A DNA stretch of 7,538 nucleotides from a virus (IMGVR_UViG_3300029157_000009:1-7538); one strand, 5' to 3'. Positions 1,167-6,155 are shown, counted from the stretch's first letter. Program-made: numbers and translations. Notes: generated by a model from the sequence alone, not told the origin.

Positions 1167-3290
1167 TTAATAATTCCCCTCAGAAAGGAAGCTGTAAACC
1201 CCGGGACCACCTGCAATATTACATGTCCACGCCTTTGGTTGTCCTGAAGCAGGTGCGCTATTGATAACGCGTTCGCCTATATCCCAGAAACCGGATGTAG
1301 GTACTGACGAAAGATAAAATGTTGTTTTTTCAACTTGTAACGCATTTGATGGCATTCCATATACACAAAGAGACGGTGAGTTTATGAGTACATTTCCTGA
1401 ACCATAATTTCTTATGCCAACATTTATAGCTGTAGCCGTTGCGTCTATATACACACCACAACTAACATAGCGCCATTTCCCATTACCAGCTAAAGGTGCT
1501 GTAGAGTCTGTTTGTCCTGCACCATTAACTATAAACATAAGTTTTGACGCTGCTCCCTGGTCATTTACCCACGCACCAAACCATACAAATTTCCCTTTTA
1601 GTTCTGGTGATTTGTTGAGGTCTATCGTTCGTCCCCAAACTCTATCTCCTGTCGTAACTAAGAATGAATAATTACCAGCATAGATGTTTTGAGTTTTTAT
1701 CAATGTTCCTGTGGTTCCAGATGTCGCGGTCCAGAGCAACATATTTCGATCAAGATAGTTAGCAGTTAACTCTCTGTTCGCAATATCTATTAAATGCGCA
1801 GTGTCAGGGTTTTGTGTCGCCGGGTCATAACTACCAACGTATCCTATGGAGTTCACTGTGTTGTTGGCAAGATATAGCCTGTCAGTAACTTTGGACGAAA
1901 GATTATTGTGGTACATTGCTAATAAATTATTCACTTTCGATACGTCTAATAACTGATTATTTTCAATCGTCAGGTTTTTCGCATAGTTCGTGAAAATAAA
2001 TCCGTCTTGGTTAGGTAGCGCGCTGGCGTAGCCAATCGCGGTCTGCTGATTCCCGCGAATAGATACGGTATCATTAATTTTTGAAAGGTCAGGAATTAAT
2101 GTAAAATTGTTCGCGATAAGGTGGATATCCGCACGTACTGTAATAGACTCAGGTACACTATACGGGTAACCAATCTCACCGTTGCGTTCCCAATAGTTAT
2201 CATCAAGGTTAAGGCCTTTAACCCCGTAAGCCAAAAGTCCGTAGAACTTATTTTGCTCTATATTGTTGCCATTAACTCTGACGCTCATACCGCCCTCAGC
2301 GTAAGCTGGCGTAAGTAAAACTCCACCGGCTCCGTTACCATAGATACGGCTGTTGATTATATTAATATTATTGCAGAAACCACCAACATTAATACCGTTA
2401 CCGGCGTTTTGAAACAACCGGCACCCAATGATGTCAATGGAGTAACCGTTAACTAATATTGCGTTGTTATTAGTATTAACCACGTCAATATTTTCTATTT
2501 TAATGTGGTTGGCTTCAGTAAGACTGATGCCGTTAGCTGCGTAGCCATTTCCGTCAAGACCAAAGTCCCTGAACTCGCAGAACGCAATTACCCCATCTTG
2601 TTGCGTGATTATCGGTGCCGCTGTACCCGTAGAGAAAATTCTGGACTGATATGCGCCAGCACCTCGTATCATGGTGACAGTATTCTTAATCGTAATACCA
2701 GGGTCAACAATGAACGCCCCCTCTGGTATAACAATCTCAGTTGGCAACGTAGCATCATCAATAGCCTTCTGAAATGCAGCTTTGTTCTGAGCACCGGTGT
2801 TTCCCTCAGCAAACCCGTAGTCTGTAAGCGTCCTCAGGTCGATAGTTAGCTTTTTTGAGAGAATGGTCGATGTGCTATCGACAAACTGTGGGTTATGCAT
2901 GACTAGAGAGTCGCCAAGTGAGTGATCTTCGCTCAGGAGATTGCCCTTAAACTGATCTGGATCATACTTTAGCACATTCGGAAAATAGAACTGCTGCGCA
3001 CCGTATGCATCATAAACAGCCATAGAATGGCCTTGCACAGTTACGAACTTGGCAATCTGTCCGTTATATACAGGGTAACCAGCAGCGTTAATGATGATTG
3101 GTTGCGAAACAGGAACGTGAGAGCCGTCTTCGTTTTCCACATAAACCTGAATCTGGTTTTCAGGATTTACCGGGTCCGTGTCAATTTTACCGATATAAAT
3201 TTTGCCATTAGTTACGGCTTTAAAAGAACGCGCCATAGTGAAGAGTTGCGAAGGCATGCTTACCACAACATTTGCGGTGATATCTGACAT
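1167..3290 (-). CDS. Tailspike protein: P22 gp9-type N-terminal head-binding domain fused to a divergent right-handed beta-helix receptor-binding domain (probable polysaccharide depolymerase)
   Basis: From the internal Met the protein begins [59 protein letters not shown]...[15 protein letters not shown]...NVLKYDPDQ, which closely matches the P22 tailspike N-terminus as I recall it ([59 protein letters not shown]...). I place the start at the ATG at 3290-3288 rather than the ORF-track start at 3338, because of this homology and a GGAG Shine-Dalgarno 7 nt upstream on the minus strand. The remaining ~590 residues are rich in N/G/I/V repeats typical of a parallel beta-helix (e.g. [71 protein letters not shown]) and do not resemble the P22 endorhamnosidase domain. 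Confidence 0.92.
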
Positions 3291-3411
3291 TTCATTGCTC
3301 CAGACGAATGATATGATGCAACCATGATGTGATTGCATACCGAAATGGTACTATTGAGTATTTATCCAGTAGGTTACGATGCCATTCCACCCAACTGGTG
3401 AGGCATCAAGG
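3291..3411. promoter_or_regulatory. Divergent intergenic control region between the tailspike and the mnt-like gene; candidate promoters and operator
   Basis: A 121-bp spacer separates two divergent start codons. It contains ATGAT direct repeats (3308-3317 and 3324-3328), an inverted repeat ATGCAA (3316-3321) / TTGCAT (3333-3338), and a short inverted repeat CACC-AACT-GGTG (3389-3400) just before the mnt-like Shine-Dalgarno. I could not assign -35/-10 hexamers with confidence. Confidence 0.35.
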
Positions 3412-3672
3412 ATGTACAGCAAATACGACGAGGCGCAGTTTCACTTGAGACTTCCGCATGAACTCCACGCGAAAATTAAGCAGCGTGCGAAGATGAATAA
3501 CAGGTCGCTGAACTCAGAGATAATTGCAGCGATTGAGGAATCATTGGATAAACAAAGCTCTGCATCAGTTTACATTGACGATGCAGAGCGTATGGCAGAA
3601 CAACAATCTGATATGGTTAAGAAAATTGTCTTTGATACGCTCAAGAAGCTATATAAAAAAGACAGCAGATAA
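3412..3672 (+). CDS. mnt: Mnt-like ribbon-helix-helix (Arc/MetJ family) transcriptional repressor
   Basis: The C-terminal half, DAERMAEQQSDMVKKIVFDTLKKLYKK, closely matches P22 Mnt (DAERLADEQSELVKKMVFDTLKDLYKK), and the N-terminal region, FHLRLPHELHAKIKQRAKMNNRSLNSEII, aligns with the Mnt RHH region (FNFRMPMEVREKLKFRAEANGRSMNSELL), both from memory. I start the gene at the ATG at 3412, which gives an Mnt-sized 86-aa product with a GGTGAGG Shine-Dalgarno (3397-3403), rather than at the ORF-track ATG at 3379. Confidence 0.85.
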   Translation: MYSKYDEAQFHLRLPHELHAKIKQRAKMNNRSLNSEIIAAIEESLDKQSSASVYIDDAERMAEQQSDMVKKIVFDTLKKLYKKDSR

Positions 3673-3692
3673 CCATCCGTTACGGAGGATTT

Positions 3693-3770
3693 ATGCACAG
3701 AGATATGCTGAATATTGCGTTCTACATATTTGGTTTTTGCACGTTCCTGGTGTTTGCAAAGCTATTCTGA
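3693..3770 (+). CDS. Hypothetical 25-aa hydrophobic peptide (MHRDMLNIAFYIFGFCTFLVFAKLF), single predicted transmembrane helix
   Basis: An ATG at 3693 is preceded by GGAGGA (3684-3689) and lies 20 nt after the mnt-like stop on the same strand. The product is a short charged head followed by about 20 hydrophobic residues. Its 3' end overlaps the last codons of the convergent 797-aa gene. It is too short to be supported by homology and the Shine-Dalgarno spacing is short. Confidence 0.25.
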   Translation: MHRDMLNIAFYIFGFCTFLVFAKLF

Positions 3771-6155
3771 CAACGCATCAGACTTAGCCCCCTGCGTCAG
3801 GGCGTTAATGGCCTTTTGCGCCTGCTGCATGGCTTTCTCAAACGCTGTTGATCCGCGTGGGGTGTTTGCCATTCGGAGCATTGCATTTCTGAATGGCTCG
3901 CTCTCATAGGCGCGAGTAAGAAGTCCGTAGCTTACCGCTGCGCCAGTTGTCGCCGGGTTCATTGCCGTCCCATACCCGATAATGAACGGGATAGTTTGCT
4001 GCCCCGTTGGTGTTGTTACTGCCGCTTTTGCTGCCTGCTGAGTGGATTGAAGGTAGTTTTTCAATCCTTTCAGATAAGCGGCTTCCTGACCTTTAAATGT
4101 GATGCCAGTCTGGTTTTGCAGGATGTTAAGCTGTCGAAGGAACTGGTCAGGGGATCCGCCAGATTTCTCCATCGCCTTTCCAATGATGCCATTGCGCATT
4201 TGCGCCCTGCCAACACGACCAACTGAGTTATACAGAGTCTTAATTTCCGATTTGTTCTTGCTGAATAGCATGTTGTTGACAACTTCCGGCGTCAGGTCGC
4301 CTTTCATGATAACATTCTTCAGCCTGGTATTCTTTAGTTTCGCCGCTTCGTCAGCGTAGACGGCATTGGCCTGCTGATATTTACGGAGAGTATCGTTGCC
4401 AAGATTCTGACCAATGGCACCATTGATATCGTCAGTCATTGCCTTGTAAACGCGCTGAATGGCAGCATCGGAACGGTTTGGTAACACTGGTCGCTCACCC
4501 TTCACGTCCATTCTGAACTGGCTGCGCAGGTCGCTTAATTGCTTCAAATCCAGATTTACCGGACCATCAGGACCAGCATTGCGAACAAGCTCATCACGAT
4601 AGGACTGAAGTTTTGAAATAGTCTCGTTATCGGCGACCTTACCAAGCTTCTGCAGATTAGATATTTCTGTATCAATCTGCTGAATTGCTCGCGCAGGCTG
4701 AATGTTTACTCCAGCCATAGCATTCTGAACCTGCTCCAGTCGATTACCGGCGGCACGACGAATTCCTGATGTTTTCGCTTTAAGGCTGTCAATAACAACC
4801 GCTGGATCATACTCACCGAATTTATCGGCAAATCTCTGCACCAACTGGCTTCTCGCTTCCTGTTGCGTTGCTCTCATTCCGCTTGTGCCAGCCAGAGGGA
4901 TATTTTCTGCTGTAGTCTGCGCCATTTTTCCGACGCGGGAAGTTGGTTGTAACAGGTCTGTGGTGTGAAGAGGAACTCCTTCACGCTCTGCAAATCTGAT
5001 AGCCTGCTGCGCTTCTGGCGAGATAGCGCCACGAACGCCACGATAAGCAGCACCTAATCCACGTCCGGCAGCGTTAATAGCACCGCCAGCAAGTACACCA
5101 ACGCCTAAATCGGTGGCGAGTGCTTCCGCATCATCTTTCGCACTATTTGCAGCAAGTGATCCAACTGCGTTTTCTGCTAGAAGGCGAGTTGCCCCCTGAG
5201 CAATTCGACCAGCAAGTGTTGGTGCCTGTGTTGCCGCTCTCTCAACGCCAGCAGGAGTGAGGTAAGGCAATGCTTCAGCAAATACCCTTCCCTCTGTCGT
5301 TTGTGGAGTCAGCGCGCCTTGCTGAAGGCCAAAGTCCTGCTCTAATCCCTGCGTTGTTACTCGTGGTGCTGGTTGATATGTACCATCGCCAATGCCGAGT
5401 TTACCGCCAGCCCAAGCCGCCGCGCTTGTTACAGCATCAGTGAGTTCAGCAGGTATGTTCGCTACGTTGATTCCTGCCTGTAGTAAGCCGCGCCCGGTTT
5501 CAGCAAGTCCATTACCAAGGTCAGACATTATTCCGCCTTGCTGCTGAACAGGTTTCGGTGCGACAGAACTTACGGGTTGAGGTGGCTGCTGACTGGCTGC
5601 CTGCTGCTCAATCTGAGCAAATGGATTATTTGGGTCTGACTGCACGCCTGATGCCGATACTTGTTCGGATGACTGTGCTTCCAGTTGTGCAAACGGGTTG
5701 TTAGGGTCTTGCTGAGGATGTACCTTTGCAGAGGTGGCGCGCTGTTCGACTGTTGAGTCTGTCACCGGGTCACCCGCCCATTGAGCAAAGCGATCATCAA
5801 CGTAACCGCGGCCTTCAGGTCCTGGCGTATATTCACCACGCTTTGCCTTCATAACGTTGCCGGGACCGTCGTGATAAGCCTGAAGAGCGTCACGCCAGTT
5901 ACCAAACTGCTGGTACATCTTTGCCAGATAGCGCGCGCCAGCGTCAGCCTGATATTCGGGGTTTTGCATTTGCTCATCGGTATAACCCATATCACGCCAT
6001 GTCCCAGGCATGACCTGAGTCAATCCTACAGCCCCGGCGGAGCTTACTGCGGCAGGGTTGTAAGAAGACTCCTTGGCACCCAGTGCAGTCATCAACCCTT
6101 CTGGCACACCGTAACGTGCGCCAGCCTGCTCTAACAAATCACGGTAATTAGCCAT
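3762..6155 (-). CDS. Virion ejection (DNA-transfer) protein in the P22 gene-16 position, with an N-terminal family-1 lytic transglycosylase (SLT) domain
   Basis: This is a 797-aa ORF. Its N-terminus carries the canonical SLT signature AKESSYNPAAVSSAGAVGLTQVMPGTW, with the catalytic Glu in the ES motif, followed by AYHDGPGN. The remainder is an Ala/Gly/Gln-rich extended region. The start ATG directly abuts the stop of the preceding gene (TAAATG at 6158-6153), suggesting translational coupling. Its position, just downstream of the gene-20-like protein and upstream of the tailspike, matches the ejection-protein block of P22-like phages. Confidence 0.9.
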   Translation of the reverse strand: MANYRDLLEQAGARYGVPEGLMTALGAKESSYNPAAVSSAGAVGLTQVMPGTWRDMGYTDEQMQNPEYQADAGARYLAKMYQQFGNWRDALQAYHDGPGNVMKAKRGEYTPGPEGRGYVDDRFAQWAGDPVTDSTVEQRATSAKVHPQQDPNNPFAQLEAQSSEQVSASGVQSDPNNPFAQIEQQAASQQPPQPVSSVAPKPVQQQGGIMSDLGNGLAETGRGLLQAGINVANIPAELTDAVTSAAAWAGGKLGIGDGTYQPAPRVTTQGLEQDFGLQQGALTPQTTEGRVFAEALPYLTPAGVERAATQAPTLAGRIAQGATRLLAENAVGSLAANSAKDDAEALATDLGVGVLAGGAINAAGRGLGAAYRGVRGAISPEAQQAIRFAEREGVPLHTTDLLQPTSRVGKMAQTTAENIPLAGTSGMRATQQEARSQLVQRFADKFGEYDPAVVIDSLKAKTSGIRRAAGNRLEQVQNAMAGVNIQPARAIQQIDTEISNLQKLGKVADNETISKLQSYRDELVRNAGPDGPVNLDLKQLSDLRSQFRMDVKGERPVLPNRSDAAIQRVYKAMTDDINGAIGQNLGNDTLRKYQQANAVYADEAAKLKNTRLKNVIMKGDLTPEVVNNMLFSKNKSEIKTLYNSVGRVGRAQMRNGIIGKAMEKSGGSPDQFLRQLNILQNQTGITFKGQEAAYLKGLKNYLQSTQQAAKAAVTTPTGQQTIPFIIGYGTAMNPATTGAAVSYGLLTRAYESEPFRNAMLRMANTPRGSTAFEKAMQQAQKAINALTQGAKSDALSE
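5589..5714 (-). repeat. In-frame tandem duplication of about 18 codons inside the SLT-domain ejection protein
   Basis: Protein residues ~148-165 (QQDPNNPFAQLEAQSSEQ) and ~172-189 (QSDPNNPFAQIEQQAASQ) are near-identical, and the matching DNA units are visible on the plus strand around 5620-5710 (caaatggattatttgggtctgactg / caaacgggttgttagggtcttgctg). The repeat lies just C-terminal to the SLT domain. Confidence 0.6.

Follow-up and report, generated by a model that had tools for sequence, protein, structure and literature searches.

A conserved mini-gene beside gene 16 of P22-like prophages and its possible role in superinfection exclusion

Gene layout of the locus

The viral sequence IMGVR_UViG_3300029157_000009:1-7538, a stretch of 7,538 nucleotides (nt) referred to here in its full length as the window, is a segment of a P22-like prophage (Lederbergvirus) that shares 97.7% identity with phage IME10 over 601 nt and is 100% identical to Escherichia coli EC26 across 251 nt. 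Between a gene 16 homolog and the tailspike gene, it carries a very short open reading frame (mini-ORF; 3693..3770, + strand), whose 25 codons plus TGA encode MHRDMLNIAFYIFGFCTFLVFAKLF, a predicted single-helix membrane peptide. A Shine-Dalgarno sequence (GGAGGA; 3684..3689, + strand) can be read directly 3 nt (TTT) before the ATG at 3693; ribosome-binding site, ORF, and translation are exactly those of the initial annotation, which had considered either a small membrane protein or a chance ORF. Comparison with related phages and prophages indicates with high confidence that the mini-ORF is a genuine protein-coding gene under purifying selection, and its homolog in Salmonella prophage BTP1 suggests a possible role in superinfection exclusion.

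The convergent gene (3762..6155, - strand) encodes a gp16-like DNA ejection protein of 797 amino acids (aa) with an N-terminal SLT domain (Pfam), which aligns with gp16 of BTP1 and P22 and is named P22-gp16 family DNA ejection protein by RefSeq in near-identical E. coli prophages. The ends of the two genes overlap by 9 nt (3762..3770), as had been noted initially; within CTATTCTGA, the overlap, the + strand gives L-F-stop and the - strand gives S-E-stop. On its other side, the mini-ORF is preceded by a gene for an mnt-like ribbon-helix-helix repressor (3412..3672, + strand; Pfam Repressor_Mnt, 8.7e-15; Arc, 1e-14). This ORF opens at 3379, but its likely start is at 3412 (86 aa, with GGTGAGG before it); Arc-family proteins of 86–88 aa are annotated by RefSeq in near-identical prophages. 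The tailspike gene (Head_binding domain, 4.4e-67) lies on the far side of mnt and most likely starts at 3293, as in P22 gp9, the mechanically listed starts being probably too far upstream. The divergent intergenic region between tailspike and mnt (3294..3411) is presumed to hold the mnt promoter and operator, by analogy with Pmnt of P22, and a promoter scan returned a single promoter-like site (3284–3312, + strand). Along the - strand, the order is thus a gp20-like gene, the gp16-like gene, mnt and the mini-ORF (both on the + strand), and the tailspike gene.

The slot between gene 16 and the tailspike gene is the cargo region that the initial annotation took it to be: in P22, it holds sieA, orf59a, mnt, arc, and ant, and in the prophage of the window, mnt is present and arc and ant are missing. 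The mini-ORF starts 20 nt downstream of the mnt stop in the same direction, and a terminator scan found no site between the two genes or downstream of the mini-ORF, in the window and BTP1 alike. Because no terminator intervenes, co-transcription with mnt, as proposed at the outset, is the simplest reading, and in the window the mini-ORF is probably carried on a transcript that comes from mnt.

Evidence for a protein-coding gene

Relatives were collected with the C-terminus of gp16 as the search anchor, so that disrupted copies would also turn up (80 IMG/VR loci fetched). Start codon, frame, and stop of the mini-ORF are kept in 82 of 82 gp16-anchored IMG/VR loci with readable sequence (25-aa type); pooled with a second set, this type is represented by 101 distinct contexts and 51 nucleotide haplotypes. 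The sole anomaly is a variant in which TGA is replaced by AGA and the frame runs on. This change, found at L153:225-299 (IMGVR_UViG_2713896831_000006) and in L156, is synonymous for gp16 and extends the peptide frame by at least 25 codons.

When substitutions are counted along a minimum spanning tree of the haplotypes and compared with permutations in which the same mutations are relocated at random, the 25-aa type shows 31 synonymous and 50 nonsynonymous changes and no stops, against a permutation mean of 20.9 synonymous changes (P = 0.003). The ratio of nonsynonymous to synonymous substitution rates (dN/dS) is 0.36 in the frame of the mini-ORF and 0.55–1.33 in the other five frames. The signal is stronger in the shorter, 23-aa type of BTP1 and its relatives, whose gp16-anchored set (80 loci; gp16 identity 82–100%) is much more diverse than that of the 25-aa type. 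An intact 23-codon ORF in identical geometry is present in 78 of these 80 loci, and its 40 haplotypes differ by 149 synonymous and 53 nonsynonymous changes, where 67 synonymous changes are expected and none of 2,000 permutations reaches the observed number. By codon position, 149 of the changes fall on the third, 44 on the first, and 13 on the second. This bears out the conservation of the peptide that the initial annotation had proposed to check.

None of the 51 haplotypes of the 25-aa type or the 40 of the 23-aa type contains an internal stop or frameshift; disrupted copies beside intact flanking genes, which the initial annotation had named as the finding that would speak against the ORF, did not appear among these haplotypes. 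The frame of the mini-ORF is the sole frame that is open in all haplotypes of both types. An antisense frame that is open in all 23-aa haplotypes was rejected as coding because its second position (the first position of the sense frame) should be the quietest but is not; it also contains stops in several 25-aa haplotypes.

The same constraint is visible between the two types. Nine of the first 14 residues of the window peptide are identical in the BTP1 peptide, seven of them via different codons (e.g., AGA vs. CGT for Arg), and the difference in length is due to one in-frame 9-nt gap, the only indel between the types. The ATG is invariant, and GGAGG or GAGG followed by NTTT is conserved in most contexts, with a short spacing of 3–4 nt; GAGGNTTT-ATG is common to the window and the 23-aa homologs of BTP1, phage L, phiKp_30, Citrobacter, and Kluyvera.

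The alternative that a chance ORF in an intergenic spacer only appears conserved because its relatives are recent copies draws on the shortness of the ORF, on the more than 90% identity of many 25-aa members, and on a central stretch of 37 nt that shows little variation in the 25-aa type, third codon positions included. It fails to account for 51 and 40 distinct haplotypes without internal stop or frameshift, for the codon-periodic substitutions, and for the conservation of the ORF in versions from Citrobacter, Kluyvera, and a Klebsiella phage, whose nucleotide identity is about 55% and which contain an in-frame indel. With an intact frame and purifying selection across hundreds of related loci, this reading, which had initially been left as an equal option, is already effectively refuted and has become barely credible. 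A structured RNA was also considered and dropped, as the folding of 3660–3800 on either strand resembles that of shuffled sequence (z about -0.4); Rfam returned no match for 3200–4200 at a permissive threshold.

Properties of the predicted peptide

The peptide consists of a short polar N-terminus (M-H/Q-R-D; in general M-x-R-D) followed by one hydrophobic stretch. Its best 17-residue Kyte-Doolittle window reaches 2.06 (1.6–2.4 across homologs), which fits one transmembrane helix, so that the small single-helix hydrophobic peptide suspected initially is upheld as a predicted single-pass membrane peptide. It has no match in Pfam or PHROGs, and the mini-ORF is annotated in none of the phage and RefSeq records examined, including Sf6, L, ST64T, and BTP1. 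A preprint on the enterobacterial microproteome does not mention the P22-like phages that carry it.

Distribution and modular behavior

The 25-aa type is present in 316 of 5,426 complete E. coli genomes (about 6%). A scan of species-representative genomes recovered diverged versions downstream of gp16 ends that are 76–77% identical, in Citrobacter (MERDLLNFALLLCGVVVGKLLFA), Kluyvera (MNRDLLNFAFLIFGICVGFALFA), and, as a 25-aa variant, a second Escherichia species. Searches with the 23-aa form (tblastn) located it at the same position in 29 further phage records; its carriers include ST104, ST64T, phage L, SPN9CC, g341c, BTP1, MG40, HF4s, and Klebsiella phage phiKp_30. Homologs also occur in Sf6 and IME10. 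A degenerate DNA pattern of the peptide core found no family member in IMG/VR outside P22-like gp16 contexts, all other matches being random.

Three different upstream contexts meet the mini-ORF at or just before its ATG: mnt in the window, a 161-aa gene in VSe13 and many E. coli prophages, and the divergent tailspike start in Sf6 and BTP1. In Sf6 and VSe13, homology begins at the ATG, with unrelated DNA upstream. Sf101 shares the mnt of the window but lacks the mini-ORF. E. coli MB64 has the same gp16 end, also without the mini-ORF; here, homology breaks off at the last sense codon and returns at the TGA. The breakpoints at the ATG and the last sense codon indicate that the coding sequence itself is the unit that is gained or lost, as expected of a phage gene module. 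In MB64 (L287:1304-1500), gp16 ends with LSW instead of LSE, and the mini-ORF is replaced by an unrelated AT-rich spacer of 190 nt that shares only the motif TTGCATTAATGTAAG with the Sf6-type leader.

The 23-aa type overlaps the gp16 stop by 12 nt, its geometry being otherwise that of the 25-aa type. The tight packing between two stop codons and the conserved overlap with the gp16 stop would also suit a role in cis, in which translation of the mini-ORF stabilizes or terminates the mnt transcript or modulates convergent transcription or translation at the end of gene 16. In that case, the amino acid sequence would be unconstrained. Against this stand a dN/dS far below 1 and an N-terminal motif that different genera preserve with different codons; moreover, the mini-ORF occurs without mnt upstream in Sf6, BTP1, and phage L. 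A purely cis-acting function is therefore highly improbable.

In the contexts adjacent to the tailspike gene, a TATAAT element is located 23 nt before the ATG, inside a well-conserved leader, and counts as no more than a promoter-like lead. Ahead of the 23-aa ORF, this leader (L295:1440-1500 and equivalents) is strongly conserved (TTGCGCAGCGTTGCGTTAAGGTCGGTTATAATTGGTTAAAAGAGTGGAGGATTT); its perfect TATAAT is accompanied by two copies of TTGCG spaced 10 base pairs (bp) apart. The leader may act as a regulated promoter, or its conservation may stem from the opposite strand, where it forms the 5' leader of the tailspike gene.

A homologous ORF within STnc6030 of BTP1

The 23-codon ORF of BTP1 (NC_042346 14082..14011) corresponds to 404321..404250 of the D23580 chromosome, as derived from the supplementary gene coordinates of Owen et al., and lies wholly within STnc6030 (listed as 403942..404727). 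STnc6030 was published as a 786-nt antisense RNA, abundant in lysogens of this Salmonella prophage (Owen et al. 2020, Microb Genom, PMC7067206), and was classed as noncoding because no ORF above 60 aa was found. A plasmid carrying STnc6030 completely excludes BTP1 but not P22, whose sequence differs; over-expression of STnc6030 left the yield of spontaneously induced BTP1 unchanged, which the authors flag as unexplained (PMC7067206). Based on the published cloning primers, the plasmid insert (L295:1095-1880) contains the whole ORF (L295:1501-1572) together with its GGAGGG site. Four distinct escape single-nucleotide polymorphisms (SNPs; 404041–404078), which cluster within 36 bp close to the RNA 3' end, are all nonsynonymous in the gp16 homolog (PMC7067206). 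A 2025 review still lists STnc6030 as an antisense RNA, and a full-text literature search found no paper that reinterprets it.

The window locus resembles STnc6030 in place and orientation, being read from the tailspike gene toward and into the end of a gp16-type gene. Both have the homologous ORF, a start region of the form GGAGG-NTTT-ATG, and an overlap of the ORF with the gp16 stop; across the ORF and the gene 16 3' end, window and BTP1 are 59% identical. The two differ in that the 5' part of the BTP1 transcript is antisense to the tailspike gene but would be mnt in the window, and in that the BTP1 ORF has 23 instead of 25 codons, is only about 55% identical at the nucleotide level, and has a different C-terminal half. 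Superinfection exclusion has been demonstrated for STnc6030.

Small single-helix peptides overlapped by antisense transcripts are typical also of the type I toxins and similar peptides (Ibs, ShoB, TisB, Hok), which comprise 19–50 aa. The mini-ORF shares with these their size, a single hydrophobic helix, and the overlap with an antisense transcript, and the operon that converges on it and overlaps it is strongly transcribed. It could encode a toxin-like or abortive-infection peptide that depolarizes the membrane once it is freed from antisense control by the convergent late transcript. Unlike type I toxin loci, however, the window has neither a dedicated antitoxin small RNA (nor any such element or Rfam match) nor a long structured leader, with merely 20 nt following mnt, and the peptide is linked to an ejection-protein gene rather than to a toxin-antitoxin cassette. 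A late transcript made only in lytic growth would also be the wrong logic for an antitoxin. Finally, constitutive expression of the BTP1 fragment, including the ORF and its ribosome-binding site, from a PLlacO-1 plasmid had no reported toxicity and did not change phage yield (PMC7067206). The type I toxin suggested initially is thus very unlikely.

The escape segment of gp16 and the comparison with SieA

The escape SNPs of BTP1 affect gp16 residues I583–V595, which align with R540–L552 of P22 gp16 when the alignment is anchored on the conserved TGQ and YGL/YES motifs. The homologous segment in the window is I725–T737 (IIGYGTAMNPATT; 3945..3983, - strand). The same region is implicated in escape from SieA of P22, which involves the gp16 changes P546S and G532W together with changes in gp20 (Leavitt et al. 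2024, mBio, PMC10883804). P546 lies inside the aligned BTP1 escape window, and G532 aligns seven residues before it. In the BTP1-type population, amino acid diversity peaks at gp16 residues 582–600 (0.16–0.20 vs. 0.02–0.10 nearby), while synonymous diversity is flat. A second peak of amino acid diversity in the same population (residues 630–654; 0.17–0.24; L298–L377 set), where synonymous diversity is lower, falls on the extreme C-terminus, beside the overlap with the mini-ORF. The 25-aa and the 23-aa types each go with a distinct version of the gp16 segment, for which physical linkage alone would suffice.

These observations bear on a rival reading built on the published model, in which the antisense transcript itself, extending from mnt or the tailspike gene across the end of gene 16, would pair with the late mRNA of a superinfecting phage and the peptide, although real, would have another or a minor role, for example as a membrane modulator in lysogenic conversion. 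In its favor are the abundance of the 786-nt RNA in lysogens, the exclusion of BTP1 but not of sequence-divergent P22 by its plasmid, the clustering of the escape SNPs within 36 bp near the RNA 3' end (PMC7067206), and the conserved convergent overlap. It does not account for the undisturbed induction of the resident prophage, an open problem of the authors themselves (PMC7067206), or show how single SNPs could defeat more than 300 nt of perfect complementarity. It also predicts neither that all escape SNPs alter amino acids, at a site homologous to the SieA escape sites, nor the strong purifying selection on the embedded ORF. The antisense interference raised in the initial annotation agrees with the model published for STnc6030, but a peptide is favored over the RNA; an RNA as the functional product is rather unlikely.

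SieA offers a further parallel. Like the role proposed for the peptide, that of SieA is exerted by a prophage-encoded exclusion protein of the inner membrane; its gene is located in the slot between gene 16 and the tailspike gene, convergent with gene 16, and it blocks DNA injection, with escape mapping to the C-terminal region of gp16 and to gp20 (PMC10883804). Unlike the peptide, which has 23–25 aa and one helix, SieA has 164 aa and several transmembrane segments. SieA also acts on P22-like phages whose ejection proteins are very different, while exclusion by STnc6030 affected BTP1 and not P22. The peptide has no similarity to P22 SieA and, with 25 aa, is too short for the FxRYPxEAxxFNK motif of SieA types A, B, and C. 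It is therefore not a member of the SieA family but may work like SieA.

Envelope-located products that stop DNA entry include Imm and Sp of T4, gp15 of HK97, Llp of T5, and Ltp of TP-J34, and escape from this group maps to injected conduit or tape-measure proteins. All of them are several-fold larger than the window peptide, and to our knowledge there is no envelope exclusion factor as small as 23–25 residues.

Proposed function

We propose that in a lysogen the mini-ORF would be transcribed as the second cistron of the mnt transcript and presumably translated from its own GGAGGA; in relatives without mnt at that position, it would follow the conserved TATAAT element. The peptide would then block the delivery of DNA by incoming phages with a cognate gp16 ejection protein, being functionally SieA-like but about seven times smaller and unrelated in sequence, and STnc6030 with its homologous 23-codon ORF would be the mRNA of the peptide. 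The evidence leans slightly toward a prophage-expressed single-helix peptide that blocks DNA delivery via gp16, a more specific role than any raised in the initial annotation. There is about an even chance of the more specific reading, according to which STnc6030 is the mRNA of a 23-residue inner-membrane peptide and the 25-residue ORF of the window its E. coli counterpart, the two forming the smallest known superinfection-exclusion protein, which acts on a short, variable segment of injected gp16. The effector may thus be the peptide rather than the RNA, and by analogy we infer that the 25-aa type of E. coli does the same job as the BTP1 type.

A block of entry by the peptide would explain three observations at once: the amino acid nature of the escapes, their coincidence with the SieA escape sites, and the unaffected induction of the resident prophage. 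The antisense model would account for the first two by coincidence only and for the third not at all.

Several points weigh against an entry block by the peptide. Published work credits the exclusion to the RNA, the reported transcription start of STnc6030 lies 406 nt upstream of the ORF (PMC7067206), and the Northern bands of about 500 nt fit neither this start nor the TATAAT element. That element was not called by the promoter scan and has no -35 hexamer at a distance of 16–18 nt. The escape SNPs are located about 170 nt downstream of the BTP1 ORF, and since only the 787-bp STnc6030 amplicon of the escape phages was sequenced, their placement in the last ~106 codons of gp16 is partly forced; the chance that a 13-codon window includes the equivalent of P546 is about 12%. 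The gp16 segment is too little hydrophobic for a membrane helix, which makes a helix-helix contact speculative, and a gp16 escape segment that packs on the peptide as a membrane helix is not claimed. Besides differing from the BTP1 peptide in its C-terminal half, the 25-aa type has no GxxxG motif, and taken alone its selection signal is modest. Some prophages with the same gp16 end lack the mini-ORF (MB64), and an exact look-up of six family members among 15 billion proteins found none of them.

Other features of the gene 16–tailspike slot

The 161-aa gene between mnt and the mini-ORF (L286:970-1455; VSe13, L003:1026-1511; L284:1350-1835) belongs to phrog_6067, a family of unknown function, and the N-terminus of its product (MKKSLLIIPLLLVGC) resembles a lipoprotein signal with a lipobox. 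It was rejected as a SieA because it has no similarity to that of P22 and is predicted to be a lipoprotein instead. In phages of the phage L, ST104, and ST64T types, a 97-aa gene divergent from the mini-ORF (orf62 of phage L; L294:1129-1422, - strand) also has a lipoprotein-like signal (MKKGVMVGCFCVFLAGC). The slot seems to collect genes of envelope-targeted proteins.

On one IMG/VR contig (L377:2092-2457, - strand), the place of the mini-ORF is taken by a gene for a 121-aa protein with the same overlap with the gp16 stop. This protein combines a charged, helix-like N-terminal part with a hydrophobic C-terminal tail (MNIAFVFLGLAFALLIKKLFS) that resembles the mini-ORF product; a protein database search returned only two relatives, neither of them named. 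In E. coli 2017.04.03CC (L285:1680-2433), an IS1A insertion begins about 9 nt past the mini-ORF stop, and the insertion and a neighboring deletion account for the loss of the remaining prophage, so that tailspike, mnt, and mini-ORF now lie beside the chromosomal dsdA. The region between the tailspike start and the mini-ORF of Sf6 (L002:1407-1470) contains CCGGAC...GTCCGG, a perfect inverted repeat of 6 bp around a 12-nt loop, and a third GTCCGG/CCGGAC copy nearby.

At the position of gtrC in P22, the window carries a 312-aa ORF with a TTG start (191–1129, + strand), which is convergent with the end of the tailspike gene. It has no Pfam match and only weak matches to PHROGs of unknown function. 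Its product has four or more strongly hydrophobic segments ahead of a soluble C-terminal part and is a candidate for an O-antigen-modifying or other lysogenic-conversion membrane protein.

Implications

Judged by its pattern of conservation, the mini-ORF is a conserved, never-annotated micro-gene of P22-like prophages that resides in well-studied model phages. Functional phage genes of this kind escape notice under length cut-offs for ORFs (above 60 aa in Owen et al., about 30 aa in gene callers), and the mini-ORF provides a concrete connection, inexpensive to test, with a published exclusion phenotype. Should the peptide be the effector, an example of a phage antisense RNA that is on its way into textbooks would need reinterpretation, and the puzzle of a resident prophage that is immune to its own factor would be solved. 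The proposed mechanism would also explain why a segment of gp16 is a hotspot of amino acid variation in P22-like phages, and a peptide of 23–25 residues that disables the DNA-translocation conduit would be a very tractable probe of gp16 action. Exclusion systems encoded by prophages determine the phages to which Salmonella, Shigella, and E. coli are open, which is of importance for phage therapy, typing, and the spread of prophage cargo.
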